From IMG/VR virus record IMGVR_UViG_2541047923_000007: a stretch of 47,041 nt of DNA. One strand, written 5' to 3'. The notes below the pieces were generated by a model. The model made no database searches. It was given only the letters and a program-made list of their open reading frames with translations, and had not been told where the DNA came from. This document shows positions 23,413 to 42,930 of the stretch, piece by piece. The first letter of the stretch is position 1. Each line of letters opens with the position of its first letter. A program made the translations under genes and the position numbers. This DNA is from a virus (Duplodnaviria; Heunggongvirae; Uroviricota; Caudoviricetes).

Positions 23413-25511
23413 AACCATCCTCCGGAAGTCAGCCAGGGGTTAACATCGTCAGTTACTGTTTTCTTCCGTTTTTGTTTTTTAACAGGCGTGGGTACCGGTT
23501 CCGGTGAGGGTGACGGTTCGGTACTGTCCGGGACACACTCCAGCCAGGTTTCCCGGCTCGCCCACTCCGGTGCATCCGGCCAGCGGATCTTTTCGTATCC
23601 ATGCAGAATGACCAGAGCCTCGGCATACACCATCAGGTCAAAAGCTTCGTTGGCACCGCGACCCGGCTTACTCCATTTCCCGTCACTGCTCCGCTCTTCA
23701 TACGTCAGTTCGTCGTAAAACCAGCTCCCCAGCCAGTCAGGGAAATGCACATAGCCGGGACCTAGCGAGTCACGCCATAACGCGTTATTCACCCGGTCTT
23801 TCAGGGCATCCGTCTGAAGAAGCCAGAGCGGCACATCACCTGCGGCCTGCGCCCGTCGGCCCGTTCGTCCGGTGTTATCAGGGAATGTACGGGTGATCAG
23901 TTTTGCTCGCCGGATGCTGTCGCCCTTAAACAGGTAAATACGTTTACCAAGGCCATCACGACGGCAACGACGCCAGAATTTATAGGCATTATCAGTGACC
24001 CCGTCTTCACCGCCGGAGTCCACCGCCATTGCCATCAGTCGCATTTGTTGAGAAGGGTCGGAGGCCAGCGGCCAGCTTTTATGAAAAACATCCGTCAGCA
24101 GGACATCCCAGTCTTCCGGATAGCTGGCCGGATCAATTCGCTGGCTCTCCCCGTCGCTGTCACCGCGCAATGACTGCGTGATGTTGTAACGATCAATAAT
24201 CCAGCGTTCGCCACGGCTGCCATAGCCCGTTACCTGAACCACAAAACGGCGATGACGTCCCGCCTGCACATCCATTGTCGCCACAAGGAAATTAACGCCA
24301 TCCGGCACACTGCGGGAAGGAACTGGCTCTGCCCGCTGCTCAAGCAATTCACTTTTTCGTTGCTCCATGCTGGCGCGGGGAAGATAAGGTAATCCCCAGT
24401 CGGTATTGATAACCGTCTTGAGTGTCTCTTCACTTCCGGTTGTCTCGTATTCCTGTTCTGCAGTAAGCAGTTTGTAAACGAGTTGCGAGAGTGTCTGATA
24501 AGCAGCTGCCGGACCCTCCATCCAGAATGACGCAATACGTGAACGCCGGGGATCACCATAACGACTGCCATCTGCATTGATGGATTCACCATCCCGTAAC
24601 CAGACCCCACGTCCGTTCAGCTCGCGTTTTTGTTCAGGCAAAATCCGTCCTGAACAGGAAGGACACTGAATATAAGCCGCCTCACTTGCCAGCACAGGAT
24701 CGGCAATATCACGGAAACCAGCAACCACATCGCCGCAGGGCTGAAAATACTCACCACAGTGTGGACAGGGCCAGTACCAGCGACGGCGATCGCCACGGTT
24801 ATAGAGCGACAGGATCCCCGTGGTTGGTGGAGCCTCATGCGGTGAAGTCCGTCGCCATTTCACATCCTTCACATCCCTGCCGGGGGAACTCTCCACCAGC
24901 GTCATACCACTGGACATAAATGTGGTGGTACGTTTTGAGGCAAGAGAGAAGGCATCCCCCTCACCATCAATATCTTCCGGAAAACGGTCATAATCCGTCA
25001 GCGCCACGCATTTATAATCTGATGAAGACATGATATTGACTGACGGCCAGCCGATTTTCAGGTAGTTGCCAGCAAGGAATGTTCTGTCATAAACGTTGTT
25101 GTCATTTTTGTTCGGACTCAGGCGACTGACCACTTCCGGGCTGACGCGAAACGTTCTGGCGAGTCGTTTTTTGGAGTGTTCGCGGGCTTTTTCCTCCGTC
25201 ATCTGAATGATCAGCATATCAGCAGGATCGCAAATCACGTTGTAAATCACCCAGCCGTCAATCAGGCCGATAGTCTTGCCGGTTCGTGCCGGGCCAACAA
25301 ATATCACTGCGTCGTATTCACGCGAGGCCAGGCAGTTCATAGGCTCAATAACATACGGTGCCACCAGCGGATCCCATGGGACTGAGTTCCCTGCCCCCAT
25401 GGGCACCCGCATATACTGAGCAACGGCATCAGCAACCCGCATTCGTCTCGGTGCGCGAAGGATATAACCTGAATCGGTTCGTGCTGCCTTTGCGGTTTCC
25501 TGATTCAGCAT
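23409..25511 (-). CDS. A: Terminase large subunit (gpA-like)
   Basis: 700 aa with an ATPase Walker A-like motif (VGPARTGKT) and C-terminal nuclease region; follows Nu1. Confidence 0.9.
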   Translation of the reverse strand: MLNQETAKAARTDSGYILRAPRRMRVADAVAQYMRVPMGAGNSVPWDPLVAPYVIEPMNCLASREYDAVIFVGPARTGKTIGLIDGWVIYNVICDPADMLIIQMTEEKAREHSKKRLARTFRVSPEVVSRLSPNKNDNNVYDRTFLAGNYLKIGWPSVNIMSSSDYKCVALTDYDRFPEDIDGEGDAFSLASKRTTTFMSSGMTLVESSPGRDVKDVKWRRTSPHEAPPTTGILSLYNRGDRRRWYWPCPHCGEYFQPCGDVVAGFRDIADPVLASEAAYIQCPSCSGRILPEQKRELNGRGVWLRDGESINADGSRYGDPRRSRIASFWMEGPAAAYQTLSQLVYKLLTAEQEYETTGSEETLKTVINTDWGLPYLPRASMEQRKSELLEQRAEPVPSRSVPDGVNFLVATMDVQAGRHRRFVVQVTGYGSRGERWIIDRYNITQSLRGDSDGESQRIDPASYPEDWDVLLTDVFHKSWPLASDPSQQMRLMAMAVDSGGEDGVTDNAYKFWRRCRRDGLGKRIYLFKGDSIRRAKLITRTFPDNTGRTGRRAQAAGDVPLWLLQTDALKDRVNNALWRDSLGPGYVHFPDWLGSWFYDELTYEERSSDGKWSKPGRGANEAFDLMVYAEALVILHGYEKIRWPDAPEWASRETWLECVPDSTEPSPSPEPVPTPVKKQKRKKTVTDDVNPWLTSGGWL

Positions 25512-26005
25512 TACTCCTCCTGCTGTAATTCCTCCTCATCATCCGCACCTGCTTCAGTCACCCGCAGGGCTACCTGATCGCGCAGATCATCAATAATGGA
25601 CTGAACACGGCTCACAGCGGCAGGCTGCAGACCGCAGTCACGTTCAAGAATATCCGGTAATGTCTCCAGCACCTGCACGACCGCTTTTGCCCAGATGGCA
25701 AACTCCCGTCTGACATCACTGGCCGGAATGAGTTGTGCCGTTTCCTGTTCGAACTTAAGACGCTCACGTTCAGACTGATACCAGGCTTTGCGCTCATGTG
25801 CGTCCATTTCGCCTTCTGCAACCGGCGGTGGTAATGCCAGAAATGCCGACACAATATCAACCACCCGATAAAGCTTGAGGTTGCTTTCATGCCCCCCTGC
25901 AACGGGTAGATTTTGCAGCCTTGCCGCAGCAGTCTGGCGATGTACACCTGACAGTGCCGCCAATTGACTGATATTCAGCGTCAGATTTTTTAACTCTCGA
26001 TCCAT
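25511..26005 (-). CDS. nu1: Terminase small subunit (Nu1-like)
   Basis: 164 aa with N-terminal winged-helix-like DNA-binding region; about 180 bp downstream of the cos-like sequence. Confidence 0.8.
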   Translation of the reverse strand: MDRELKNLTLNISQLAALSGVHRQTAAARLQNLPVAGGHESNLKLYRVVDIVSAFLALPPPVAEGEMDAHERKAWYQSERERLKFEQETAQLIPASDVRREFAIWAKAVVQVLETLPDILERDCGLQPAAVSRVQSIIDDLRDQVALRVTEAGADDEEELQQEE

Positions 26006-26174
26006 ACCCGCTCCAGAATGTTTTAAACATGCATCTTGCGAACGACTTTAGGCAAACGGTGTTAGTGATGAACAAAAAACAATCAAAATCGACACCACAA
26101 AAATAAAAATACTGTAATATCAATCTATTACAGTAGTGGTGATGACGGATGAAATTTCAAAAACTAGCCTTTTT

Positions 26175-26192
26175 CCGCGACGCTCCCGCCCC
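26175..26192 (-). other. cosN-like cohesive-end site
   Basis: Minus strand reads CCACG-GGGCGGGAGCGT-CGCGG, resembling the lambda cos junction ...ACG-GGGCGGCGACCT-CGCGG at lambda-like spacing from Nu1. Confidence 0.5.
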
Positions 26193-26557
26193 GTGGCAGG
26201 GACCCCCACTGGGAGGACCCGACAGCCTGACAACCGTGACGAGCATCTGAAACAGAGCGTTACATAATGGCATGGGGATAATTCAGAAGGACATCACAGC
26301 ATGCCCACACAAATTAGTGTGAGTGTCCTGTTTCTTACTACGCGCAGGACTGACGAGCATGAGGGGAAAATACGCGAACCGAAATGCCTTATCTTCAGAA
26401 ATGCAGCCGGCATCCGAACTGGACGATATTGTAAATTCACCTAAATACGAGGCATTGCTGTAGTTGAATTGCAGTACTGTATTAGCCTTACAGTGACAGA
26501 ATACGATATTGACTCTGTCACTTGTGAAATGGTCAGAATGGTTAGCAGTTATGGTGA

Positions 26558-26764
26558 TCAGTCAACCACCAGGGAATAATCCTTCGTATTCTTATCGTGC
26601 TTTACTAACGCGGCCTCAATTGCCCTGAATGCTTCCAGAGATACTTGATGTTCTATACATGCAATTACAACATCCGGGTAACCCATCGAAATGGTGCTAT
26701 TAAGCATAGTTTTTACACGAACCTGCTCCTGGGAGGGGGCATCAGTGTATTGATCTTTATGCAT
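26558..26764 (-). CDS. Hypothetical small prophage protein
   Basis: 68-aa ORF between cos and gnsB; no recognised motif. Confidence 0.4.
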
Positions 26765-27059
26765 TTTGTCGCTCCATTCGTTTGCTCTTCACTTGCGGCT
26801 AAAAATATAACGTCAAATCACTCAGCATGAAAGAGTGAAAGTTTCAGCGCGTTTCCCTTACATAATCTGTCGTTTGTATTCTCTTCAGGCATACCGGAAA
26901 GACTAGGTATTGTCACACAACCAATACCATCGACAATCGAGATTTATATCTATTCAGTAATGTTTAAATATAACAAAACCCCGTAAAAACGAGGTTTATG
27001 GGTAATTTGTATTGTTGAATAGCATCTGATGAGAAATTGATGCTAATACTATAAACATG

Positions 27060-27233
27060 CTAGATTAAATCAATCTTGATATCATAGCTTTCAAGACCAG
27101 TCATTTTTTCCCGTGCAGTAAACTGGATACTGGTAACTTCTTTCCCGGTCTTTTTCTTAAGCTCAATGATTTTTTTTGTTATATATTCAGAAATATCTGC
27201 TTCTGTTTTTGTTTTTAACTCTTCAATGTTCAT
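27060..27233 (-). CDS. gnsB: GnsA/GnsB family protein
   Basis: 57 aa MNIEELKTKTEADISEYITKK...FTAREKMTGLESYDIKI matches the remembered GnsB family. Confidence 0.8.
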   Translation of the reverse strand: MNIEELKTKTEADISEYITKKIIELKKKTGKEVTSIQFTAREKMTGLESYDIKIDLI

Positions 27234-27405
27234 CATTTCCTCTTTTAGTCTGTTATGACTGTCCTGGTACACAGTAGTGTCAATTATATGGAGCAAACGT
27301 ATAAAAGATAAGATGAAACATCGCAATAATCAACATACGACGGTCTAAATTTCACACAAACAGATAAAGATGATTATCATTTATTATCAATGCATTAGAA
27401 TCAAA

Positions 27406-27636
27406 TCAATTCAAGAGTCTCATTGCTGCTTCCAGAATTTCTTCTGAAGTTACATGTCGATCCGCTGCTACATAAATGACTTTATGATCTCCGGTCAGAG
27501 ATGGAAACCCTGCAGCCATTACAGTGAGGTGTGTTGTTTCGCCATTTGGATATTCACGCATGATGGTGTTAACTCCGGTCATCACTGGCACTACCATTGC
27601 TGGTTCAGAGTTAAAAAAAACTATTATTTTTTTCAT
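27406..27636 (-). CDS. Hypothetical small protein
   Basis: ORF with a GTG start at 27675 or ATG at 27636; the GTG start would overlap the cspI terminator. Confidence 0.35.
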   Translation of the reverse strand: MKKIIVFFNSEPAMVVPVMTGVNTIMREYPNGETTHLTVMAAGFPSLTGDHKVIYVAADRHVTSEEILEAAMRLLN

Positions 27637-27676
27637 AATGTTACCGTAATATGTGAGTATCCATCGACTAGACACT

Positions 27677-27700
27677 AAGCAAAAAAGCTCCCGAAGGAGC
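27677..27700 (-). terminator. Rho-independent terminator downstream of cspI
   Basis: Minus-strand GCUCC-uucg-GGAGC followed by UUUUUU. Confidence 0.6.
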
Positions 27701-27907
27701 CTTCATTTTCACTTTCTTAAATCTAACGACAGATGGCTAACATTTAAGTATTGTGAAATATTATCAAATGTAATCATCATTGATTTACAAAAGATACATT
27801 TTGCCCCGAAAGGATTTCTGTCAGAAACATCAAAAGATGATGTTCTATACTGAGAACCATGGCAACACGGGCATCTAAAGTGAATATGGTTTGTAATATT
27901 TTCTACC

Positions 27908-28120
27908 TCAAAGTGCCACTACATGAACAGCTGCAGGGCCTTTAGGTCCGTTCTCAATACCAAATTCGACTTCCTGATTCTCAGTTAACGTTTTGAAATC
28001 GTTGCTCTGAATAGCTGAGAAATGCACAAACACATCTTTGCTACCATCTTTCGGCGTGATGAAACCAAAACCTTTTTCAGGGTTAAACCATTTCACTAAA
28101 CCAGTCATTTTGTTAGACAT
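27908..28120 (-). CDS. cspI: Cold-shock protein, CspA family
   Basis: 70 aa [23 protein letters not shown]...AAVHVVAL matches remembered CspI; long upstream leader. Confidence 0.9.
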
Positions 28121-28483
28121 CATTATTACCTTTTGAAGAAGTTAGCCCTTGGGCAGAATGGTCCGAAAAAAAATATCAGAGAGAAAAACCAACAAGGAAA
28201 TCTCAAGAGGTACAAATAATAAAATTATAACAATGACTGCTTCAGATAATTTTGTAACAAACCAGAACACCATTAACGCATGATTAACCAACCATAGCAA
28301 GGATTACTTTTGTAAAGAAAAACACACGAATGAAACAATAGCTTTATTTATTAATAAAACGTGTCATTCTGTCTAATGACCTTTTATCTTACCCTTAAGA
28401 TTTCAAGGATTTTGACTCATGGAAGAGTCCTTTTTATTTAAATTTCACATTCAGCGCTAAAAATAATCCGATTTAATATTAAT

Positions 28484-29507
<1,024 letters not shown>

Positions 29508-29511
<4 letters not shown>

Positions 29512-29819
29512 AGATATTTATGATGAGGACGCTCGTGCTTATTGGCAGGATTTTCAATCTTAAAGGAGTACTGATGCTGCAGATAAGACTCAACTTTTTC
29601 TGACAATTTTTCTGCTACTTCCAGGAAGACTTGCCGGACGCTCATTCTGGCTGCTGCCTCATAAAACTCCAGCGCAGCTCCTTCAACACGGTCCATGGCG
29701 ACATCCAGGCCAAAAATTTCACCGTCAAAGCGTTCTTTGTCCTGTAAGGCTACAGTTACCGTAACTTTATTCTCAAAATTACGGACTCCTTTCACAACCA
29801 GTTCATAGTATTGAGTCAT
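29508..29819 (-). CDS. ydfR: YdfR-like protein (DUF1327) within the lysis cassette
   Basis: 103-aa ORF between holin and endolysin, as in the Qin essQ-ydfR-rrrQ arrangement. Confidence 0.6.
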
Positions 29820-29823
29820 TGGA

Positions 29824-30039
29824 TTACTCTCCTCTCGCAGCCTTACGCCTGTCTTCTTTAATCTTGAAATAAAGATTTGTCAGGTACGTCAGCAGGCCAA
29901 ATACCAGGCTACCCAGCACACCTATTGCTGCCCACTGTGAGGGCGTGACTTTATCGAGCAGCTGTAAAAACCAGTAGCCAGCACTGCCTGCGGAGGTGCC
30001 GTAGGCAATGCCTGTTGAAATTTTGTCCATGGATTTCAT
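29824..30039 (-). CDS. Holin, S21-type pinholin with dual-start motif
   Basis: [24 protein letters not shown]...[11 protein letters not shown] closely matches remembered S21; GGAGGTG Shine-Dalgarno. Confidence 0.9.
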
Positions 30040-30141
30040 AGCCTCACCTCCGCACGGAACGGATGGCATAGTTATTATGTGTAGGCTTCCAGACACATCA
30101 ATCAGAGCCTTAATTGATATATATGCTGGAGACGATGCAAT

Positions 30142-30165
30142 ATAAAAAGCTCGCCGTAGCGAGCT
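30142..30165 (-). terminator. Hairpin terminator downstream of TolA-like lipoprotein gene 1
   Basis: Minus-strand AGCUCGC-uacg-GCGAGCU followed by UUUUU. Confidence 0.5.
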
Positions 30166-30290
30166 AATAAAATGTATTTCTCTGATATTATGTTTATTTG
30201 TATTAGCTCAGACTTGACATCACAGGTTTCGTATATAGAACATCATCAAATCTGTCAGTTTGCTATGAATGAGATATAGTAATTGAAGAG

Positions 30291-30686
30291 CTAACCTCGC
30301 ATGTCAAAGCCAGATTTCTGAAAATCTCTGTAGACTTCCGGATTGTTGAAGGCCGGAAATTTGGCTTTATGAGCTGCGGACTTTATCGCTTCGCAATAGG
30401 CTTTATCACCGTTACTGGTAGATATTTTTAACGCCGTGCCATCCTGAGAGAATTCCATATGCAACCTGCATTTTTTCCCTTTCCAGTTATGCGGCTCATC
30501 AAGTTTGGCATTAATTGCAGCTCTGATTCCCCGCGCTTGCGCCCCCCATTCATCCTGATCATCCCAGCGTCCTGAACTGCAACTACCTGTAGCAGTAGTT
30601 TTGTGGCAATCTGAAGGGTGTAAAGGTGTGCATCCCGCAACAAAACCGACCCAAAAAGTCAACATAACGATTTTCTTTAATCCCAC
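30291..30686 (-). CDS. Lipoprotein with TolA domain III-like C-terminus (copy 1)
   Basis: GTG start with GAGGAG Shine-Dalgarno; lipobox FVAGC; C-terminal KKCRLHMEF...GDKAYCEAI...NNPEVYRDFQKSGFDM resembles the TolA C-terminal domain. Confidence 0.7.
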   Translation of the reverse strand: MGLKKIVMLTFWVGFVAGCTPLHPSDCHKTTATGSCSSGRWDDQDEWGAQARGIRAAINAKLDEPHNWKGKKCRLHMEFSQDGTALKISTSNGDKAYCEAIKSAAHKAKFPAFNNPEVYRDFQKSGFDMRG

Positions 30687-30836
30687 TTCTTGCTCCTCAA
30701 TCCATTAAAATCTCAGCAATAGTAGTTGTTACGTCCGCCACTGGCTCAGAGCTGACTATCCGCTAAATTTAGCTCAGTGCCGTAGTTGTGTCAGAACAAA
30801 CCTAAGCCGAAACCGTTTATTACAAAACAATAAATA

Positions 30837-31265
30837 TCAGGGTTTAAAATCCAGCACCCCATTTTGAAATACTTTATATACTTCCGGCGAAGGGGGGGCA
30901 GGTATATCAGCATTCTTTATCGCATTCATCGCTTCACGACATAAATCGAGGTCTCCACTTTCTCTTTTAACCTCCAGTAGAAGGCCATTCGGGGCCATAT
31001 GCATTCTCAGTGTACACTCTTTTCCTGAATACTTACTCGCATCCCCGAACTGTTTTTCGATGGCGCTCTTGATTTGATGGGCATACAGACGGATATCCTC
31101 ACTAACATCAGAAGTACGTTCAGATGAACTCACATACTGTGTCTCTATTGCTTTATCGGAGTAATATGATGTACGGTCATGATAATTTGTCGATACAGCA
31201 TCAGTGCACCCGATAATAATCCCACTAATAATCAACGTAAGAATTGATGCGCTACGAAAACCCAT
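30837..31265 (-). CDS. Lipoprotein with TolA domain III-like C-terminus (copy 2)
   Basis: Lipobox IIGC; C-terminal region ...YAHQIKSAIEKQFGDASKYSGKECTLRMHMAPNGLLLEVKRESGDLDLCREAMNAIKNADIPAPPSPEVYKVFQNGVLDFKP aligns closely (about half identical) with the remembered E. coli TolA C-terminus. Confidence 0.75.
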   Translation of the reverse strand: MGFRSASILTLIISGIIIGCTDAVSTNYHDRTSYYSDKAIETQYVSSSERTSDVSEDIRLYAHQIKSAIEKQFGDASKYSGKECTLRMHMAPNGLLLEVKRESGDLDLCREAMNAIKNADIPAPPSPEVYKVFQNGVLDFKP

Positions 31266-31798
31266 TTTTCCTCACATATGTCATATAGTAAAGGATTATA
31301 TATACCGTTGTTTTGGACGCTCAAACAGCGAATCAGATCAAATAAAACGCACATTTGTTAACATTTACACAAAGTCTGCGTGGGATATTCTGAAAGAATA
31401 TCCATAATGTGGAGAGAATCTATTGAAGTGCATGGTGCCGGGTGCCTCCCGGTGAATTCAGTACCAGCACCTGAATCCGCGATTATCCCATATACCTACT
31501 CGCTGATTGCCCCTCCGCACAGGGGGATTCACCATGCCAGTTTCTTTTAACAAACTCCCCGCAAACCAGAGAACAGTCAACCGCCTGAATTGTGAAGTAT
31601 TTAAAAATTTCTCCCGCTAACTGATACCCGGCTAACAGTCTGGCGTTTTCTTTTTCAGCAACGGGAAAGCAACAACCACCACACCCGCCACCAGCACACC
31701 GTCAGCCAGCACTGACATTATCCGGCTGCTGCAATGCCATTCACAAAAACAGTAAGCAATCACTTTTTACCGTAACAGGTGATAATCCAGATATGTAT

Positions 31799-32152
31799 CT
31801 ACCCCAGATGAGTAATCCGAAGTTCATCCATACCACAGGTCCTGGCTATTCTGTTGTACTCCTGAACAAGAGCAAATAATTCTGAATTAGCAACCATGAA
31901 CTCATCGCAAACCCTCTGTATAGCATCACTATTCAGAATAATAACGTCTCTTCCCGAAAGACGATCAGGAGCACAGAACAAAACTGTCAAACGGCTGAAG
32001 GCCTTTGCTCGTGCTGCATTGACTATATCAATACGCTGCCTAAGGATGAAACACCCCGACGCCTCATCAATATTCACTCTACCCACACCATATGAATGAT
32101 AAATATTTAATGCTGAAAAAACCATTAGACCGTATAACAAACACTCAATCAA
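31799..32152 (-). CDS. Hypothetical protein (weak call)
   Basis: 117-aa ORF with TTG or ATG start and no clear Shine-Dalgarno; between the cargo locus and the tRNA cluster. Confidence 0.3.
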   Translation of the reverse strand: MIECLLYGLMVFSALNIYHSYGVGRVNIDEASGCFILRQRIDIVNAARAKAFSRLTVLFCAPDRLSGRDVIILNSDAIQRVCDEFMVANSELFALVQEYNRIARTCGMDELRITHLG

Positions 32153-32262
32153 TACTTAACAGAACTTTTATTTTTGACAAACATATTATGTTTTCAACAA
32201 TATCCTGAGCCAGGTATATTCCAGTATAAGGCTCTGCCGGAAGGAATCTGGAAGAATGAATA

Positions 32263-32339
32263 TGGCGCGCTGTACTGGATTCGAACCAGTGACCGATTGC
32301 TTAGAAGGCAATTGCTCTGTCCGGCTGAGCTAACAACGC
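32263..32339 (-). tRNA. tRNA-Arg (anticodon UCU)
   Basis: Cloverleaf read by eye: acceptor GCGTTGT, anticodon loop CUUCUAA, T-loop GTTCGAATC, 3' CCA. Confidence 0.8.
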
Positions 32340-32352
32340 TGAATACCGATAA

Positions 32353-32433
32353 TGGACCGCCATCGGGGACCCGCCCCCGCACCAACAACCCTGTTATCGT
32401 GTCGTCTGCTCTTCCTGATAAGCTAATGGCGGT
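32353..32433 (-). tRNA. Degenerate tRNA-like element
   Basis: 7-bp acceptor-like stem (CCGCCAT/ATGGCGG) and 3' CCA but a non-canonical T-arm; lies between two good tRNAs. Confidence 0.25.
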
Positions 32434-32439
32434 TTGTGA

Positions 32440-32515
32440 TGGTGGCCCTTGCTGGATTTGAACCAGCGACCTGGCGATTATGAGTCGCTCGCTCTCACCA
32501 CTGAGCTAAAGGGCC
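32440..32515 (-). tRNA. tRNA-Ile2 (anticodon CAU, ileX/ileZ-like; Met-type anticodon)
   Basis: Near-identical to remembered E. coli ileX; anticodon loop CUCAUAA; 3' CCA. Confidence 0.85.
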
Positions 32516-32550
32516 GGGAGCAGAATAATAACGGTCCGTAATTAATTCCG

Positions 32551-32578
32551 CAATAAAAAACCCGCTCGGCGGCGGGTT
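32551..32578 (-). terminator. tR'-like terminator downstream of Q
   Basis: Minus-strand ACCCGC-cgccga-GCGGGU followed by UUUUUU, about 80 nt after the Q stop. Confidence 0.6.
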
Positions 32579-32619
32579 GTAGAAACTCTTCTAACGTCAG
32601 GCATAAAAAGCCCATCATT

Positions 32620-32655
32620 ATGACGAATTTACCACAGATTCCGGAAAAATCAACC
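32620..32655 (-). promoter_or_regulatory. Candidate late promoter pR'
   Basis: Minus-strand TTGATT, 16-nt spacer, extended -10 TGgTAAATT, between the Q stop and the terminator. Confidence 0.4.
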
Positions 32656-32658
32656 TTG

Positions 32659-33480
32659 TTACCTAGTTACCTTTTTTAACTGCCGCTCAGCCCATGCTTC
32701 TTCAATATCAAACCGGGTCACCAGCGCATCATAGAATTTCTTAACTGTTTTTTCCCATGACGCGCGTGTTATCTGGTTTGTCACCTCGCATATAGCATTA
32801 AATGCCTCCGTTGATGGTAGTCTTTCATAGCCACGACCACCACAACGCTGGCAGTCTCTGACAACAGGCATACCACGTTTTACCGACTCTTCACGATGAA
32901 TGGCGACACCACGCCCACGGCAATCCTTACAGGCGGTGGAAACCTCACCCTTTCCGCCACACTCCGGACAGGCAACTTTTACCACCTCCCTGACTTTTTT
33001 CCATTCTTCCCAGTAAGACGGATACACACCTTTCGTACACTTTGCCCATACCGGCGGCTTACCATCCGGATACTGGACCTTGTTTGTAAAAACTATGCTT
33101 TCAATAAATTTTTCCCCATAGCAACAAGGGCACTGCTTTTTACTCGCTGCGCTGCGGGCATAATCCTCAAAAGCGTACGAAGCCATAATGCGCATCACTA
33201 CCGGTTTTATTTCTGCCGGAAGTTTTCTCAACGCCGCCACACGATCGCACCGACTGAGTGCATAATCTGCCAGTAATTCTGTTGCCCGCGCCCTGTCATT
33301 CATACTGATGCCCATTTTCCCCAGGAACGCAGAAAAACCCATCTCAGCCCGATTCTGTGTCATGCCCTGCGCGGCCATCACATCAGTGATACTCAGCGCA
33401 TCTTTTGACGTTGAGGCCGATGCATCGGTCAGGCCAGGGGATTTTGGGGAGTAGTATTTCGGTAAATCTTCCAGTTTCAT
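32659..33480 (-). CDS. Late antiterminator Q
   Basis: 273 aa with several CxxC zinc-binding pairs; position upstream of pR' and the lysis genes. Confidence 0.8.
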   Translation of the reverse strand: MKLEDLPKYYSPKSPGLTDASASTSKDALSITDVMAAQGMTQNRAEMGFSAFLGKMGISMNDRARATELLADYALSRCDRVAALRKLPAEIKPVVMRIMASYAFEDYARSAASKKQCPCCYGEKFIESIVFTNKVQYPDGKPPVWAKCTKGVYPSYWEEWKKVREVVKVACPECGGKGEVSTACKDCRGRGVAIHREESVKRGMPVVRDCQRCGGRGYERLPSTEAFNAICEVTNQITRASWEKTVKKFYDALVTRFDIEEAWAERQLKKVTR

Positions 33481-33494
33481 TTTTTGACCTGCTC

Positions 33495-33851
33495 TTAATG
33501 CATTATGGGGTAAATCTTCACCCCCAGACGTCCGCCAGATACTGGCTGACCACGAACGATATTGATTTCATCAAACTGCTCATCGTCCATTAACACTCCC
33601 GCATGCGTCAGCGCATCCAGCGGTGCTTTCAGGATATTGTCCAGGTCGCGACGACGCTTATCCGGTGGCTCTGCAATCACCTTTATCGCCAGCCTTCCGG
33701 ACAGGCTTAATTTCAGCCGCTGCTGGCGAACAATAAGCGCCACAGCCCGGCGATAACGCTTTCCCTCCTCCGAGATAAAATATGTGCTGCCACGGCGTCG
33801 CCAGTAAGTGTTCACCGTCGGCGGGTAAGGTAAAACCAAATCTATGAGCAT
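33495..33851 (-). CDS. rusA: Holliday junction resolvase RusA
   Basis: 118 aa with the RusA motif ...DKRRRDLDNILKAPLDALT... Confidence 0.85.
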   Translation of the reverse strand: MLIDLVLPYPPTVNTYWRRRGSTYFISEEGKRYRRAVALIVRQQRLKLSLSGRLAIKVIAEPPDKRRRDLDNILKAPLDALTHAGVLMDDEQFDEINIVRGQPVSGGRLGVKIYPIMH

Positions 33852-33863
33852 CAGTCACCTCTT

Positions 33864-34952
33864 TTACCCAAGCACGCCAGTTGCAAAGGCGTGATCAAGA
33901 AAACGAAAAATTAAATCAACCTGAGAACCATGCTTTTCTTCGAACGCCAGAGGATCCGCATGAAGCTCGTTGTGATGCTCCCGACACAGCGGTAGCGTGA
34001 AAATATCGTGAGATTTTGTCCCCATTCCGCCCTGACCATGACCAATCAGGTGATGGGGATCGTCGGCTGGCTTACCACAACACGCACACGGCTGTGTCTT
34101 CACCCAGCGTTTGTATTTCTCGTTAACCCAGCGGCGACGTTTAGGTCGTTTCATGAAAGATTCCGGAGACTCAGGATCAACGGCAATGCTGACCACCGTC
34201 TTTTCCTGTGGTGGGTTCTGTTGCTGGTGGGCGTGAGGCAGCGGCGCAAGATTTTTTGTGCGCTGTTTCAGTATGCTGGTGGCGGTCTGCTCTCCCGGTA
34301 CGATGTCGCTTTCGCGGTACACCGAGCAGATTTTTTCCGCTGGTAATCCCAGCGAACGACGCGATACAGCCTCAGGTAGTGCATCCACCACCTGATTGCA
34401 GACCGCCCACCAGGATAATTCAGCCAAAGATAATTCCCGCTCCTGCGTACCGCTTATTGCGTGACGGATGACGTCAATCACCCATGCTGTCAGATTTTGT
34501 TGAGCAAGCAGCTCCAGTGATTCCGATGTCTGGTCACGCAGTTGGTTGTCGCAGTGCCAACACAACACCATTGCGCCGGTACCATAACGGTGAATGACTG
34601 TTTCAGTGTGATGGTAATCTCCATTAGGCCACTGGCAGGATGTAACATGACGTAATAGCCAGTCAGACAATGCGCCAACGCCGCCAGCAGCACGAATCAC
34701 CCGTTCGTTACTAAAAAACGGCAGCAATGTTTTGTCTTCCGCCAGCGGCTGGCCAACGGCAGGAACGACTCCGGATGGCAGATTACGCATGCTTTTTGGT
34801 TCCGGTTCCACCAGCACTCGAGGATTATGAAATATCTGTATGGATTCACGGCCCGGCTTAAGGACCACCAGCCCAAGCTCAGGCACCAGAACAGGTCTAA
34901 GTAATACCCGCACGTTACCTCCAGATCCGTTGCTGGAAAGTGCGGGACGCAC
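33864..34952 (-). CDS. DUF968 protein (YdfU-like) with HNH-like Cys/His motif
   Basis: 362 aa; C-terminal CACCGK...HHLIGHGQGGMGTKSHD...CREHHNELH; GTG start. Confidence 0.65.
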   Translation of the reverse strand: MRPALSSNGSGGNVRVLLRPVLVPELGLVVLKPGRESIQIFHNPRVLVEPEPKSMRNLPSGVVPAVGQPLAEDKTLLPFFSNERVIRAAGGVGALSDWLLRHVTSCQWPNGDYHHTETVIHRYGTGAMVLCWHCDNQLRDQTSESLELLAQQNLTAWVIDVIRHAISGTQERELSLAELSWWAVCNQVVDALPEAVSRRSLGLPAEKICSVYRESDIVPGEQTATSILKQRTKNLAPLPHAHQQQNPPQEKTVVSIAVDPESPESFMKRPKRRRWVNEKYKRWVKTQPCACCGKPADDPHHLIGHGQGGMGTKSHDIFTLPLCREHHNELHADPLAFEEKHGSQVDLIFRFLDHAFATGVLG

Positions 34953-35193
34953 GTGGTGGGCGTTCGGAGTAAGGCAATCTGACTGAGATTATCCAGTGAC
35001 GGTAGTCGAGACTAAGGGCTTTCTTAACCTCGTATCCGCGCCTGCGGTAACACTGAATTATCCATTCAGCCTGCTCTTCAGTGCATGGAGGGTGTTGGAA
35101 CCATTCAGACTTGAATGCGTGAGAATACCGCTCGTGCGTGCAGGCAAGAACGGGCGAATTATCAGAATTGTAATATTTTACGTTGCGTGCCAT
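34915..35193 (-). CDS. Rem-like small prophage protein
   Basis: 92 aa with GGAGA Shine-Dalgarno; sits between ydfU and hokD as rem does in Qin. Confidence 0.5.
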   Translation of the reverse strand: MARNVKYYNSDNSPVLACTHERYSHAFKSEWFQHPPCTEEQAEWIIQCYRRRGYEVKKALSLDYRHWIISVRLPYSERPPRASRTFQQRIWR

Positions 35194-35259
35194 CGGTTTT
35201 CTCCGGTGGCACGGTGTTACTCAGCGGGAGTTCAGCCCCGCGCAAGATTGTAGATGAGT

Positions 35260-35511
35260 TTATTCTTCTGCAAAAGCTGAAAAGCCTGCTTTTATTCCGA
35301 TCTCTTTCAGTGCCTGTAATGAAGTGACAAACTCACCTTCGCGCAAGATAAATCCGTCTGTCACTCGACCATCCACAAAATTAATTAACGCAGCCCCATT
35401 CTTTCGCAAACACATAATGCGGTAATGACTAACAAGATTTCCATTTTCAACGCACACCGCATAGAGGCCATCTTCACAAAAAATTTTACGCAGTTCTTCG
35501 ATGTTCATCAT
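35260..35511 (-). CDS. Hypothetical protein (83 aa)
   Basis: ATGATG start with AAGGA Shine-Dalgarno; downstream of the hok terminator, so its own transcription unit. Confidence 0.5.
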   Translation of the reverse strand: MMNIEELRKIFCEDGLYAVCVENGNLVSHYRIMCLRKNGAALINFVDGRVTDGFILREGEFVTSLQALKEIGIKAGFSAFAEE

Positions 35512-35640
35512 CAGAATCCTTCCGGATAATTAGCTCTCCCCTTTAAGGGACCATCCCTCTTATCCCTGCGCGCTACTTAAGTATTTTTGATTCTATTCCG
35601 GCACCGTCCAGAACTTCAAACGCGTTGAAAATAAAAACAA

Positions 35641-35665
35641 AAACCCGCCGAAGCGGGTTAAGTGC
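35641..35665 (-). terminator. Rho-independent terminator of the hok transcript
   Basis: Minus-strand AACCCGC-uucg-GCGGGUU followed by UUUUGUUUUU. Confidence 0.6.
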
Positions 35666-35727
35666 GGGTGCGTTGAGGATGCCTGCCACATCAGAGGTGG
35701 CGAGGGATTTCTCCCTCGCCGGGTCTC

Positions 35728-35883
35728 TTACTCCTCAGGTTCGTAAGCTGTGAAGACAGCGACCTCCGTCTGCCCGGTTCGGATTCGTACCTCGCAGAGG
35801 TCTTTCCTCGTTACCAGTGCCGTCACTATGACGGTTAAACAGATGACGATCAGGGCGATTAACATCGCCTTTTGCTGCTTCAT
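35728..35883 (-). CDS. hokD: Hok-family type I toxin
   Basis: 51 aa MKQQKAMLIALIVICLTVIVTALVTRKDLCEVRIRTGQTEVAVFTAYEPEE matches remembered HokD; overlapping upstream mok-like frame extends to 35940. Confidence 0.85.
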   Translation of the reverse strand: MKQQKAMLIALIVICLTVIVTALVTRKDLCEVRIRTGQTEVAVFTAYEPEE

Positions 35884-36119
35884 AGCCTGCTTCTCCTTGC
35901 CTTTCGGCACGTAAGAGGCTAACCTACATGTGTCTAGCATGAAATTGGCCTCAGATTAATGTTAAGCGTCTTGCAGGACGCGTAATGTTAACTGGGGCTT
36001 TTCTCTATCTGCCGTTGGTGTTCATGCCCGAGGCAGATAGCCTCAAGCACCCGCAGCAATTTTACTTAACTCCCGCTACCTCGCCAATATGAAATCAATA
36101 AGAAAGGTGCTCCATAAAA

Positions 36120-36806
36120 TCACTCCTTCTCTTCTTTACCGTAGTGGAGTTGACCAATTTTGATAAGAGGGCGTCCCTGAGATTTGCGGTGTAGATTGGT
36201 ATCGCGCAGAGAATACACACAGCCACAATATTCCTGCTGATAGAATTTTTCGCGCTTGCTGATTTCAATCATGCGGGACGAGCCGCCCTGCTTGCGCCAG
36301 TTATAATCCCAGTACACCATGCCCGGATAATGCGCGACGGCTCGCCGCCCACAGTCGTTAACCTGCTGCATATTTTTCCAGCGTGAAATGCCCAGTGAAC
36401 TGCTGATCACACTGAAACCATTTTCAGCAGCGTACAGCGCTGTCCGCTCAAAACGCATGTCAAAACACATGGTACAACGGATCCCCCTCTCGGGCTCCCA
36501 TTCCATTCCTTTGGCACGTTCAAACCAGTTGTCTGTGTCGTAATCAGCATCAATAAATGGCACGCCGTGTTGTTCAGCAAAGCGAATATTCTCATCCTTA
36601 CGAATTAAATACTCTTTCTGAGGATGAATGTTCGGGTTGTAGAAAAAGATGGTATAGTCGATTCCCGAGGCCTGAAGCGCCTCCATCACTTCACCGGAAC
36701 ATGGAGCACAGCAAGAGTGCAGTAGTAGTTTGTTTGCCCCGTTTGGGAGCTCCAATTTAGGCCGTTTGAAATCAGCAATAGTCATAAATATTTTTATTGG
36801 GGTCAT
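36120..36806 (-). CDS. DUF208 protein, epoxyqueuosine reductase QueH-like
   Basis: 228 aa with N-terminal [11 protein letters not shown] and C-terminal [11 protein letters not shown] cysteine motifs, as remembered for the QueH family. Confidence 0.5.
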
Positions 36807-36969
36807 GAAAATAGCACAGAGTGTAGCATCAGAGCAGGGCTATCGGGAATAGATGTCTAAATCTGGTAATATCTGCTTTTGACACAAAGCAGACAACCAC
36901 GCTAGCTCAATCCTGTGCCGTGAAAATGTCAATTCACATCTGAACTAATGCTCTTTAATCGAGTAACGT

Positions 36970-37386
36970 CTATAAATAACGAAAATTTCTCTGATAAAAT
37001 GCCAGTATGCGCTGCATAACTTCGCTCTTCCGGCACTCACAGCAAATTATGTTTTGGTGCCTGTCATAACGACGTATTTCTCCGTCAGGTAATGACCAGA
37101 TAAGGTCCGGATCAACCACAGATGGTTTCTTCACCTTTGCCCTAGATAGTTTTTTGCGGGCATTTTGCCAGTCCTTACGAGCCTGTTCAGACGGGAATAA
37201 CCCGTAGCCAGAGTTGTATACATCGCCACTGGCAACCAGCTCTCTGGCGAGAACGCTCATCAGATATCTTGTCGCACCTGTCTTGGCTTCCAGTTGCCGT
37301 AACGTCTCGCGCCCACTCCGGCGTACTAGCTCAACAACCTGTCCCTTGATTTTTTCCCGCTCTTCTTGTGTAAATACTTTTGCCAT
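36970..37386 (-). CDS. Hypothetical protein
   Basis: ATG at 37384-37386 with GGAGG Shine-Dalgarno; basic C-terminus with a CCEC motif. Confidence 0.5.
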   Translation of the reverse strand: MAKVFTQEEREKIKGQVVELVRRSGRETLRQLEAKTGATRYLMSVLARELVASGDVYNSGYGLFPSEQARKDWQNARKKLSRAKVKKPSVVDPDLIWSLPDGEIRRYDRHQNIICCECRKSEVMQRILAFYQRNFRYL

Positions 37387-37401
37387 AAGCGCCTCCGGCA
37401 A

Positions 37402-38115
37402 TCACTTTTCCGATGCAACACAGCGAGAAGAATCAGTAATCTGTCGAACAATATCCCGGTACTTGTTCAGCTCCCGCAGCGCGGCGCAGACACGCTCCCA
37501 CTTCTGGACATGATTTTTCGCCCGGCGCAGCTCACGGTTTGCCATGTGCAGCGACTGCACAATGTCCGCCACAGTTTCTGTTTTAATATCTTCCTGTGTT
37601 GCATCTTTCTGTACCGGCAACGCAACACCTGCTGGCTGAGGAAAGGCTTTAAAATCAGTTTCCGTTACCGATGCAGCTTTCGGCTCTGCTGGTAAATTAT
37701 TGCCCGGTATGCAGTAACGAAATTTACCGTTCTGATTTACGCGAATCAGGCGTCCTTTGCTGATTGCCATTGCCAGCGTTGAAGCAATTTTGCGGGATGT
37801 GGTACCGAACAGCGTAGCCAGTTCATCCGCCGTTTGTGGTCCGCGTTGTTCAATCGTCGCGGTTAAATCGCACTCTGAGATTTTCGCTACTGTTGCCGTG
37901 GTGGTTTCTTCCGGCAGTTCTGCCTGCATTGGCTGTTCCTGCTGAACGTTGTTATCAGCCACACGCCAGGTGTACGCGCTTTTATCAACGAAACCAGCTT
38001 TTTTCAGTTCCCATAGTTCGTTCAACACTTCTTCACGACTGATATCAAGTCGCGCAGCAAGTTCTATGGATGTGGCTTTTCCCATTGCTTTCAGTGCGTC
38101 AAAAACAGTCTCCAT
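37402..38115 (-). CDS. Hypothetical protein with winged-helix-like domains
   Basis: ATG at 38113-38115 with GGGAGGA Shine-Dalgarno; HTH-like segments ([29 protein letters not shown]). Confidence 0.5.
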
Positions 38116-38137
38116 TAAAATTTCCTCCCGATAAAAA

Positions 38138-38884
38138 TTACTTCGCAGTTCCTGGCTGGACGACATTTGGACGCCAGCTCTCCCAGTTAAAATTCACCCA
38201 TCGCCCGCCGTTCATGGTCATGCGATCCATAATCCGCTCGCCGAGCAATGTTTTCATGGCCTCATAGTTCAGGTTTGTCAGCATTCCCACGCTACGCATC
38301 GACGCTGTCCGTCGATCAATAATCTGGTGCAGTACCACCTGCTCGTTTTTCGTCTCGCGCTGAATGCCAATTTCATCAAGAACCAGCAGATCCACTTCGC
38401 ACAGTTCCCGCAAAAATTTTTCGCCTGACTGCCCATCGTCATAGCTGGCGTGGAGGGCACTCATAACATCAGCCACGGTAACCACAATCACTGTCTGACC
38501 GTCTTTCAGCAGGCGATTCCCGATAGCTGCTGCTAAGTGGTTCTTCCCGGTACCAGGTTTTCCGCTAAACGCGAAATTTGTGCATCCGGTAACCAGTTCG
38601 TCAGCGATAGATTTTGCCTGACTCAACGCGTATCGCTGGCCGTCGTTCTGCACCTGGTAATTCACAAACGAGCATTTACGGTGCAACGGCTGGATGCCTG
38701 AGCGATTCAGAATTTTTTCCACCCGCAACTGGCGATTCAGGCGGTTGATCTCCTCGCTACGTTTCTGGCCTTCAGCAAGTTGCCACTCGCGCCACTCCGC
38801 TACCGTTCTGAATGGGGCGGTTACATGTGGCGGGGTCAGTCGGCGGATGCGTTCCAGAACGCCGCCTGTCGCAATATTTTTCAT
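38138..38884 (-). CDS. DnaC-like replication ATPase (helicase loader, YdaV-like)
   Basis: 248 aa; Walker [12 protein letters not shown], Walker B LLVLDEIG. Confidence 0.85.
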
Positions 38885-38890
38885 GGTTCG

Positions 38891-39697
38891 TTACCCCCTG
38901 AAGCCTGGCGGGATCGCACTGTCCGGCAACGAGACGGTGTTAACCTGTCTGAGCAACGTCTCAGGCCGAACACCTTTCGGCGCGAACAAGCCCTGGTATT
39001 CATTGGCGATGCTATGTCGAATCACCTGCTCAGGGGTAAAACCCTGCTGGCGGAATTTTTCCAGCTCCCGTATCGCCCCGTTAGCGCCCTGCTCCGTTCG
39101 AATCGGTTTACGCAATGCATGGCGAAATTCAACCCACTCACGCCAAAGCGAGACAGAAATCCAGTTCGGCAAAGCAATATCCAGAGGGTCAAACTTTTTG
39201 ACACCTCGATTCCCCCGGGGGGGATTTAGGGGGGGATCTGTTTTTAGATCTTTATCTGTATCTTTATTAGTTGCCTTTGTGTTGACATCATGTTCAAACA
39301 CCACTTCAACATCTGTTTGAACACCTGTTAAATTTCTCTCTTGTTTTGTTTGAACATCTGCTTCCTTTCTGCTTCTTCTGGCCTGAACAGATGCTTTTCC
39401 TGCGGCTGATTTTTTGGTTAATTTTTCCCTGACTGATGCCAGATCTTCCTCAATCCGAAGATGCACCCATTCCTCGCCGTTATCGCAAAAAAACTCCCGC
39501 AAGGATGGTTCAACATCAGCCCATCGCTCGTTAGTCAGACGGGCAATTTTTGCCAGCCTGTTTTTGGGTATTGGCTTTCCTGTTTGCCAGTAATTGAACA
39601 TCAGCAACAAATACGCACCGTGCTCCTCTGCTGACAAATGCATGGTGTCAGCCAGGTAATCAGCTATGTACAGTTGCATGTATGGTAATGCGGCCAT
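38891..39697 (-). CDS. Replication initiation protein (YdaU-like)
   Basis: Start MAALPYMQLYIADYL... with Shine-Dalgarno; position upstream of the DnaC-like gene. Confidence 0.65.
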   Translation of the reverse strand: MAALPYMQLYIADYLADTMHLSAEEHGAYLLLMFNYWQTGKPIPKNRLAKIARLTNERWADVEPSLREFFCDNGEEWVHLRIEEDLASVREKLTKKSAAGKASVQARRSRKEADVQTKQERNLTGVQTDVEVVFEHDVNTKATNKDTDKDLKTDPPLNPPRGNRGVKKFDPLDIALPNWISVSLWREWVEFRHALRKPIRTEQGANGAIRELEKFRQQGFTPEQVIRHSIANEYQGLFAPKGVRPETLLRQVNTVSLPDSAIPPGFRG

Positions 39698-39760
39698 AAT
39701 TGCCCCGTATGATGCTGCCCGGTTGCTTAGAATAAGCACAAACAGCATGAAAACTTTTGC

Positions 39761-40183
39761 TTAATGAACAATGACAGAATCGTCGGAAGACCCGCCACCG
39801 CTGAAATATGCTTTACGGTAAACGGCCTGGACTGCATCATCATGCGCATCAATTGCCGTACTCAACGCTTCCTGCGCCGCCAGTAATGCACGGCGTTCCA
39901 GGGTATCGAAGATGCAGAGTCGGTGACGCAGCTCGCGCGGAAGAATTGCCAGAACCGCAGGGATCAGTTTCTGAATTTTTTCCCTTTGCGCTTTCGTTTC
40001 ACCTTTCAACCAACGGTGATAGATATTCTGCTGATTGTTCCAGTCCTTGCCTGGTACCAGGGGCAATTCGCCGCCCCCCTGGCGCAGATATTCTTCAGTA
40101 ATTGCGTTAGCAACCCACGCCTGCCCTTTTTCGGCTGCTAGGGCTAACAACACTGATTCGATGTGCTCATGCCTGATTTTCAT
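39761..40183 (-). CDS. YdaT-like protein
   Basis: 140 aa, same length and position as Rac ydaT downstream of the Cro-like gene; start overlaps it (ATGA). Confidence 0.55.
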   Translation of the reverse strand: MKIRHEHIESVLLALAAEKGQAWVANAITEEYLRQGGGELPLVPGKDWNNQQNIYHRWLKGETKAQREKIQKLIPAVLAILPRELRHRLCIFDTLERRALLAAQEALSTAIDAHDDAVQAVYRKAYFSGGGSSDDSVIVH

Positions 40184-40422
40184 GAATCAACCGCTCCTAT
40201 GCTGTTTTCGCTATGCTTACCGTCTGGGGGGAATACATCGTCAAGTCCACAATGAGCACCAAGCCGATTAAGGGTGGAAACAATTTTTCTGCACTCCTCT
40301 AGCCCAGGGGTACGAAAATTTGCTTCGTAATTTGCCAGTCGGCTTTGTATCCACCCTAGCTGAACAGCGAGTTGTCTTTGAGACAGACCAAGTTGTTTTC
40401 GATATGTTGAAATTTTGTTCAT
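40180..40422 (-). CDS. Cro/YdaS-like HTH regulator
   Basis: 80 aa with HTH QRQLAVQLGWIQSRLANYE; GGAGG Shine-Dalgarno; divergent from the repressor gene. Confidence 0.75.
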   Translation of the reverse strand: MNKISTYRKQLGLSQRQLAVQLGWIQSRLANYEANFRTPGLEECRKIVSTLNRLGAHCGLDDVFPPDGKHSENSIGAVDS

Positions 40423-40439
40423 TAAAAACCTCCGACGAC

Positions 40440-40510
40440 AATTTTAAACACACCTTGTGTTTTACGGTCAAGCTATTTTGTGTTTTATATAAATCACGAT
40501 TCGTGATACA
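40440..40510. promoter_or_regulatory. Divergent promoter/operator region (OR analogue)
   Basis: Palindrome AAACACA-cct-TGTGTTT at 40446-40462, a further TGTGTTT half-site, and palindrome ATCACGAtTCGTGAT around 40492-40506. Confidence 0.55.
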
Positions 40511-40518
40511 AGGACGAA

Positions 40519-40938
40519 ATGGAAAAAGAAAACGAAAAAATTGCCGCTAGTAGGCTCAATGACAAAATTGCAATGCGTCTTAAAGAGCGCAGGCAGAAGC
40601 TTGGTTTATCTCAAGGAAAACTTGCTGAAATCTGCGGATGGACGCAATCGCGTATAGGTAACTATGAGGCGGGCAGCAGAAATGTTGGAGTGCATGATGC
40701 TGTCGTCCTGGGAAAGGCGCTGGGCATATCTCCTCCTGAGCTCCTCTTTGGGGAAAAAGACTCTTCTGAATTGTGGTTAAATGAATCCCAACGAAAACTT
40801 CTTGAGTTGTTTAACCAGCTACCGGGCTCAGAACAACAACGAATGATTGAGCTATTTGAAGTCCGGCTAAAAGAAATCGACGAGTATGTAGAAAAATATT
40901 TGAGGGGCAGGCTTAAAGATACCCCCCCACCGGAGTAA
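40519..40938 (+). CDS. Prophage repressor, XRE-family HTH (DicA/RacR/CI analogue)
   Basis: 139 aa; HTH LGLSQGKLAEICGWTQSRIGNYE; AAGGA Shine-Dalgarno; divergent from the Cro-like gene. Confidence 0.8.
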   Translation: MEKENEKIAASRLNDKIAMRLKERRQKLGLSQGKLAEICGWTQSRIGNYEAGSRNVGVHDAVVLGKALGISPPELLFGEKDSSELWLNESQRKLLELFNQLPGSEQQRMIELFEVRLKEIDEYVEKYLRGRLKDTPPPE

Positions 40939-40964
40939 TGATCTTGCTATCACAGTAATATGCC

Positions 40965-40996
40965 AATCAGCCCGCTATCAGCGGGCTTTTTTTGTA
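40965..40996 (+). terminator. Rho-independent terminator after the repressor gene
   Basis: AGCCCGC-tatc-AGCGGGCT followed by TTTTTTT. Confidence 0.6.
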
Positions 40997-41024
40997 CCAT
41001 CATCATATGACACGCCACCATAAA

Positions 41025-41375: not shown

Positions 41376-41385
41376 GGTGCGAAAA

Positions 41386-42838: not shown

Positions 42839-42930
42839 AACAGTTCCGTAATAAACATCCGATTTCATTCTTATATGCCAGCAATGGCAGGGATTTGTTC
42901 ACCCTTAAATCTGTAATGAGGTAAAACAAA

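Follow-up and report, generated by a model that had tools for sequence, protein, structure and literature searches.

A probable lambda-type late-gene regulatory module with a tRNA array and no stx in an Escherichia lambdoid prophage

The stretch of DNA analyzed here (the window; 47,041 nucleotides, IMG/VR virus record IMGVR_UViG_2541047923_000007) carries a Q-pR'-tR'-tRNA cluster that reads from 32655 down to 32263, immediately after the gene for the antiterminator Q. This region is very probably the late-gene regulatory module of a lambdoid prophage of the Qin/mEp460 type. Positions 1276..47041 are a complete lambdoid prophage with its late operon on the minus strand. The prophage is 99.9% colinear with Escherichia phage mEp460_ev081 (LR597641.1), from which it differs in the replication/immunity segment 36117..42282, and its complement of head, tail, lysis, and integration genes is complete. 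The 3.3 kb around the Q-tRNA region is 100% identical to the deposited phage and is present (at least 80% of its length covered) in 358 complete E. coli genomes. The arrangement is ordinary and already described, is found verbatim in public genomes, and gives no sign of a new kind of system. The original prediction of a Q-pR'-tR'-tRNA cluster without the Shiga toxin genes (stx) was borne out by ARAGORN, Rfam, the Pfam family PF03589, colinearity with lambda, and a tblastn search for stx. The value of the analysis lies in annotation and context rather than in discovery. It adds an assignment of the promoter and pause element by homology with lambda, a separate candidate promoter for the tRNAs, the junctions of the cargo slot, and the small RNA (sRNA) STnc100 and a DUF3927 gene in a stretch supposed to be non-coding.

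The elements of the transcription module are the following, in window coordinates.

32659..33480, minus strand: gene for the late-gene antiterminator Q, 273 amino acids (aa), of the lambda Q family (PF03589)
32626..32653, minus strand: candidate late promoter pR', with -35 TTGATT at 32653..32648, a 16-nt spacer, -10 TAAATT at 32631..32626, and TG before the -10
32611..32619, minus strand: predicted +1 (about 32619) and -10-like sigma70 pause-inducing element AATGAT followed by GGG, colinear with lambda AACGATGGG at +1 to +9
32553..32619, minus strand: predicted leader RNA of about 66 nt, from the predicted +1 to the terminator T tract
32553..32578, minus strand: intrinsic terminator tR', AACCCGC-CGCCGA-GCGGGTT followed by T6ATT, with the stem at 32578..32559

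The Q protein matches PF03589 with an E value of 1.4e-54 and the lambda Q structure in the PDB (7UBM) with an E value of 2.8e-40. It is homologous to lambda Q, with 31% identity end to end except for a 68-residue insertion. This zinc-finger insertion carries two further CxxCxGxG motifs and is extra relative to lambda Q. The Q gene lies directly upstream of the promoter candidate.

Right after the Q stop codon, the minus strand reads TTGATT-N16-TAAATT-CGTCAT-AATGATGGG, compared to TTGACT-N17-TAAATT-TGACTC-AACGATGGG at lambda pR'. The -10 hexamer TAAATT is identical in the two, its distance to AAYGATGGG is equal, and the hexamer, the geometry, and the pause element are colinear with those of lambda. 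The lambda-derived motif TAAATT-N6-AAYGATGGG was found once in the window, exactly at pR', where 0.03 occurrences are expected by chance. It also stands directly 3' of Q in lambda, in Stx2_EH1910 (LC567834.1), and in every related locus. In a set of 22 distinct relatives, the 28-nt core from the -35 to the -10 has one variable site and a nucleotide diversity (pi) of 0.019, compared to 0.38 for the 8 nt before the core, 0.36 for the 6 nt after it, and 0.16 for the last 100 nt of Q. Across loci whose Q proteins are 89 to 100% identical, a single site of the pR' spacer varies. We presume the 16-nt spacer to be the Q-binding element, and its invariance is what such an element would show.

Three points weigh against this assignment. 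Only 8 of the 12 positions of the pR' hexamers agree with the consensus, and because of this the candidate is not listed by a simple sigma70 scan; the case for pR' therefore rests on colinearity with lambda and on conservation. The spacer has no similarity to the lambda Q-binding element, and it is therefore solely the invariance of the spacer that argues for Q binding there. Finally, the promoter of this lambda-type module is a candidate predicted from its sequence and conservation. The earlier proposal of a candidate pR' downstream of Q is nevertheless backed by the unique lambda motif and the conserved core.

In lambda, AACGAT at +1 to +6 is a -10-like element at which sigma70 pauses the polymerase so that Q can load. 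The corresponding sequence of the window, AATGATGGG, likewise contains a -10-like, pause-inducing element in the predicted initial transcribed region. In relatives the pause hexamer varies only as AA(C/T)(G/A/T)AT, with A2 and T6 kept, the pair of positions that matters most to sigma region 2.

An intrinsic terminator lies between the promoter and the late genes. According to the terminator scan and the fold, tR' has a 7-bp stem with 5 GC pairs, a 6-nt loop, and a T6 tract. It is strong, and the stem is kept in relatives despite loop changes and one wobble change. The scan, the fold, and this retention confirm the strong tR'-like terminator proposed previously. The predicted leader folds with -18.8 kcal/mol (z -2.1). 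By analogy, it would be the counterpart of the lambda 6S RNA and of StxS, a short RNA that arises in lysogens from constitutive pR' transcription ending at tR' (PMC7547250), but it is homologous to neither. The terminated leader of lambda is 194 nt long and StxS is 258 nt, processed to 74 nt; homology of the window to Stx2a phages starts only past the terminator. Two Rfam matches over the leader (Trp_leader, 25.6 bits; isrK, 18.1 bits) were dismissed as terminator look-alikes below the gathering scores. A 46-aa open reading frame (ORF) at 32478..32618, which starts in the pause element, was rejected because its frame crosses the terminator into ileZ.

By homology with lambda, RNA polymerase would start constitutively at pR' and would pause a few bases downstream, where sigma70 would re-bind the -10-like AATGAT. 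Without Q, transcription would terminate at tR' and yield the short leader RNA. After induction, Q would bind the conserved pR' spacer and load onto the paused polymerase, which would become terminator resistant. Read-through would then proceed past tR' into the tRNA array, the cargo slot, STnc100, a moron of TolA-like genes, and the lysis and structural genes.

The tRNA array, which lambda does not have, and its candidate promoter consist of the following.

32525..32553, minus strand: candidate tRNA promoter TTGCGG-N17-TATTAT, with -35 TTGCGG at 32553..32548 and TATTAT at 32530..32525, ending 9 nt before ileZ
32440..32515, minus strand: ileZ-type tRNA-Ile2 with anticodon CAU (ARAGORN; Rfam, 72.5 bits, E about 1e-15)
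32353..32432, minus strand: degenerate argN, a pseudo-tRNA, from alignment with intact argN(UCG) and from the fold
32263..32339, minus strand: argO-type tRNA-Arg with anticodon UCU, reading AGA (ARAGORN; Rfam, 68 bits, E about 1e-14)

ARAGORN detected exactly two tRNAs in the whole 47-kb window. Both score well above the Rfam tRNA threshold of 29 bits, and the NCBI annotation pipeline PGAP places tRNA-Ile and tRNA-Arg at the same two positions in identical genomes. The tRNA-Ile2(CAU) and tRNA-Arg(UCU) of the original prediction are thus confirmed by three tools. A match to the Rfam family Plastid-ycf2 antisense to ileZ was dismissed as a tRNA look-alike below the gathering score.

The identity of the CAU tRNA required attention, as ARAGORN names it tRNA-Met from its anticodon and several GenBank phage records label it in the same way. 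If it were an elongator tRNA-Met, it would add nothing to AUA decoding. We consider this very unlikely. In an alignment with the K-12 tRNAs, ileZ is identical to ileX at 68 of 76 positions, and the differences are mostly paired and compensatory; C4, C5, the anticodon stem, and the T stem are shared with ileX and not with metT or metU. The tRNA has the acceptor-stem pairs C4-G69 and C5-G68, by which TilS distinguishes tRNA-Ile2 from tRNA-Met (reportedly the finding of Ikeuchi et al. 2005), and PGAP labels it tRNA-Ile. With its CAU anticodon, these pairs, and an overall likeness to ileX, the tRNA is of the Ile2 type, and lysidine at C34 and charging with isoleucine are predicted. The CAU anticodon of tRNA-Ile2 reads AUA after lysidine modification.

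The origin of the tRNAs was also considered. Lambdoid phages often integrate into tRNA genes, and a recent preprint reads tRNA matches near prophage sRNAs as integration hot spots. The tRNA genes could then be remnants of a chromosomal att site, or host tRNAs captured at the prophage end, and not functional phage genes. However, the cluster is flanked by Q and the lysis genes and is some 14.5 kb away from the prophage end that carries the integrase; LR597641.1 and Stx phage genomes have it at this internal position too. In addition, the tRNAs differ from their host counterparts, the argO-type tRNA-Arg being identical to argU at only 57 of 77 positions and ileZ to ileX at the 68 of 76 given above. 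An integration-site origin was rejected on position and appears extremely unlikely.

The array lies between tR' and the first late and cargo genes, and ileZ begins about 40 nt past the T tract. Of the ileZ-argN-argO array of Stx phages, for which Plunkett et al. 1999 and Schmidt et al. 1997 are said to be the classical references, ileZ and argO are present and an intact argN (UCG) is not. ileZ is 100% identical to that of the Stx2a phage WGPS8, and argO is 99% identical, with one mismatch in the acceptor stem. The 100 nt between the two tRNAs align with argN of this phage. The sequence retains the acceptor stem, the D arm, and the 3' end. Some 25 nt of its anticodon arm have been exchanged for other sequence, and its T loop no longer has the GTTCGA motif. 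The element was not accepted as a tRNA by ARAGORN, nor by Rfam even at E<=1. Because no predictor accepts it, the earlier label of a degenerate tRNA-like element was accurate, and the element can now be named as a decayed argN. The decayed allele recurs in many loci and genomes. The claimed resemblance to the ileZ-argN-argO layout of Stx phages thus holds for an identical ileZ, an argO one base off, and a decayed argN.

Other arrays are headed by an identical ileZ (in IMG/VR loci L008, L040, L054, and L082, among others). The array ileZ-Lys(UUU)-Thr(UGU)-Gly(UCC) was observed in at least 15 of the 121 IMG/VR loci among the matches listed, and a hybrid array, as in locus L123, has the replaced anticodon arm together with an intact T arm. 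These variant and hybrid arrays indicate recombination inside the tRNA array. The nin region additionally encodes a homologue of the epoxyqueuosine reductase QueH (36120..36806, minus strand; PF02677, E 2e-65), a tRNA-modification enzyme; the phage has tRNA genes as well.

The tRNA array appears to be a separate mosaic unit with a weak candidate promoter of its own. Several unrelated sequence classes stand upstream of identical ileZ genes (119 IMG/VR loci among the matches listed), and all of them keep TTGnnn-N17-TATTAT ending 9 nt before ileZ, while the spacer varies. Some relatives have a methylase insertion of 1.5 kb after tR'; it separates the T tract from the -35 of the tRNA promoter, with the break exactly between the two. 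In enterohemorrhagic E. coli, transcription of the tRNAs has been reported to start in the interval from tR' to stx2 (Sy et al., PMC7547250). Because of the conserved promoter upstream of ileZ and this reported start, the tRNAs are probably not solely Q dependent and would be made in lysogens too, besides by Q-dependent read-through.

A separate tRNA promoter also fits a different reading of the locus, in which the module is a silent relic like the cryptic Qin prophage of K-12, with pR' and Q dead and only the tRNAs expressed from their own promoter. argN is already decayed, and the nin and lysis gene content (rem, hokD, ydfU, rrrQ, rzpQ, cspI, and gnsB) is that of Qin. By PGAP names, the neighbor genes belong to the Qin prophage family (hokD, rem, ydfU, rusA, essD, ydfR, rrrQ, rzpQ, cspI, ynfN, and gnsB), and these names, rusA aside, are shared with the quuQ region of Qin. 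However, Q is intact and the promoter core is visibly constrained across relatives. In contrast to cryptic Qin, the prophage of the window is complete, with structural genes and the full head, tail, lysis, and integration gene set, and is colinear with a deposited phage genome. K-12 Qin, which we take to have cspB/cspF between quuQ and essQ, presumably also has no tRNA array. A dead module is accordingly improbable to a high degree, and we retain the reading of an intact late-gene regulatory module.

The rare-codon tRNAs had been expected to support AT-rich late and cargo genes, and the codon counts agree with this in part. We compared the eight genes from the tRNAs to the end of the lysis cassette (the cargo/lysis set) with host core genes. 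ATA was used at 20.2 per 1000 codons in the cargo/lysis genes and at 3.6 per 1000 in the host (odds ratio 5.8, p 6e-7), and AGA at 13.8 and 1.5 per 1000, respectively (odds ratio 9.5, p 1.5e-6). A like ATA and AGA bias is found in stx2AB. CGA and CGG, the codons of the decayed argN, showed no enrichment in the cargo/lysis genes. A general role in late expression, however, faces three difficulties. The host baseline is small (18 core genes, 4768 codons), because the host region fetched was two-thirds P2-like prophage. The head and tail genes (7472 codons) use ATA at 4.6 and AGA at 3.2 per 1000, near the host level, and the structural genes make up most of the late transcript. The phage also evidently tolerates the loss of argN. 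Because the structural genes use AUA and AGA near the host frequency, any tRNA benefit is local at best, and the codon counts make a rare-codon role plausible for the promoter-proximal cargo and lysis genes only. The array would supply tRNA-Ile2 for AUA and tRNA-Arg(UCU) for AGA, the codons enriched in these neighboring genes; the third member, for CGA and CGG, is decayed.

The cluster had been called typical of Stx-phage late regions. A homologous module does occur in Stx phages, but the layout is not special to them. Of 5426 complete E. coli genomes, 3061 have the tRNA array, and a single genome may hold as many as 13 copies. A copy at least 95% identical to the version with the decayed argN was found in no fewer than 2066 records, and the decayed argN is present in at least a third of the complete E. 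coli genomes. Among species representatives, the exact ileZ was found only in Escherichia and Shigella, apart from two metagenome bins. What has been called the Stx-phage tRNA arrangement is therefore general in Escherichia lambdoid prophages.

Comparison with Stx2 phages of the 933W/Sakai Sp5 type shows the same order of elements, Q-pR'-tR'-ileZ-argN-argO-stx2AB. The homology takes in ileZ, which is identical, argO, with a single mismatch, and roughly 40 nt before ileZ in which the tRNA promoter is contained; STnc100 follows the cargo as in the window. In contrast, Q, pR', and the leader are unrelated, with a 933W-type Q of 144 aa, and the homology ends at the terminator. The window also differs in its degenerate argN and in the 642-bp orphan cargo that replaces stx. 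A closer likeness was found to Stx2_EH1910 and to locus L035 from IMG/VR, where the same ydfU-rusA-Q module (Q of 273 aa) drives stx2. As in the window, this module is followed by the pR' motif, the leader, and then the tRNA array, although both loci have an intact argN and stx2AB, and in Stx2_EH1910 an inserted DNA methylase separates tR' from the tRNAs.

The cargo slot and its border contain the following.

31608..32249, minus strand: cargo segment of 642 bp at the stx2AB site of Stx phages, absent from empty-site loci
31799..32125 from ATG (108 aa) or 31799..32152 from TTG (117 aa), minus strand: orphan ORF, phrog_2873
31632..31763, minus strand: DUF3927 gene, 43 aa (PF13064; phrog_1470)
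31376..31566, minus strand: STnc100 sRNA (RF02076), Rfam 114 bits against a gathering score of 47, a full-length model match

Homology between the window and empty-site loci extends over 32555..32250 and then resumes at 31607..31429. The insert is therefore 32249..31608, and stx2AB in locus L035 occupies the same junctions. We surveyed the slot in 120 IMG/VR loci among the matches listed and counted its states where STnc100 was found downstream. In at least 32 loci, STnc100 stands about 24 nt after argO, which is the empty site and the commonest state. At least 7 loci have stx2AB between argO and STnc100, and at least about 19 have the 642-bp segment of the window. The variable site thus lies between argO and STnc100 and is empty or filled with stx or the 642-bp orphan cargo, as far as the aligned sequences indicate. 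These counts fix the exact junctions of the stx-carrying slot, from argO to STnc100.

A tblastn search of the window with Stx2A and Stx2B gave no stx homologue, and by this measure the prophage is not Stx converting. The orphan ORF in the slot is a putative gene. PHROGs lists it as phrog_2873, a family without an assigned function, although PGAP never calls it. A large protein search returned only close Escherichia and Shigella relatives, without a domain or name. A coding test on only 9 distinct sequences gave 5 distinct substitutions, 2 synonymous and 3 non-synonymous. The toxin slot had been thought to comprise this 117-aa ORF, a 530-bp non-coding stretch, and two TolA-like lipoprotein genes. 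The ORF is part of the slot, but the slot covers only 32249..31608, with the TolA-like genes beyond STnc100, and the 530-bp stretch is not non-coding but holds the DUF3927 gene and the STnc100 sRNA.

In an Stx2a phage, an STnc100 match of 158 bits comes directly after stx2B, and by its position the sRNA is a conserved backbone element that marks the downstream border of the cargo slot. According to a 2026 preprint, STnc100 is related to the PasD sRNAs, which adjoin PF03589 Q genes. The STnc100 of the window has an internal deletion relative to the Stx2a-phage copy. The existence of an stx-free phage with the same Q module as stx2 loci means that the toxin cassette could be exchanged via recombination between conserved flanks, which bears on the origin of new Stx phages.

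A wider joint reading of these elements is tentative, and we regard it as unlikely in its entirety. The tRNA array and STnc100 would be the conserved recombination anchors of a site in Escherichia lambdoid phages that is hot for cassette exchange and takes up stx, the 642-bp cargo, other inserts, or nothing. In addition, the constitutive pR' leader would act in trans in lysogens as a StxS-like sRNA, and the decayed argN, with its acceptor stem and D arm intact, would be kept as a processing spacer and not as pure debris.

At the start of the cargo segment (32170..32201), promoter-like sites face both ways, as consensus matches only. The plus-strand site, TTGACA-N16-AACAAT, points back into argO, and the minus-strand site, TTGAAA-N16-AAAAAT, lies upstream of the orphan ORF. 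PHROGs describes the family of the DUF3927 membrane peptide as 'TciB-like inhibition of cell division or resistance to colicin'. The peptide adjoins the TolA-like genes, and the two may share a colicin or phage-exclusion theme. The TolA-like genes (30837..31265 and 30291..30686, minus strand) encode paralogous small lipoproteins that consist almost wholly of the TolA C-terminal domain, with lipoboxes IIGC and VAGC. The pair is bracketed by a promoter-like site at 31324..31295 and a strong terminator-like hairpin at 30165..30148 (minus strand) and was for this reason assigned to a separate moron beyond STnc100. A literature search found no described function for these lipoproteins; they could act as decoys for TolA-dependent colicins or filamentous phages.

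Elsewhere in the window, three further elements scored above the Rfam gathering score on the minus strand. These are IS009 at 3343..3541 (221 bits), a cspA-type thermoregulator 5' untranslated region upstream of cspI at 27862..28278 (110 bits), and the sok antitoxin RNA of the hokD locus at 35878..36052 (115 bits). A prophage that is otherwise near identical (locus L126, strain IMT16316) has a terminase large-subunit gene split by an insertion of about 10 kb (about 22529..32914 in that locus). The matching site in the window is at about 24513..24525, and the insertion is absent there. The insertion contains an integrase fragment, IS1, a primase, SSB, and a protease/capsid fusion gene, and because of this gene content it resembles a satellite or the remnant of a second phage.

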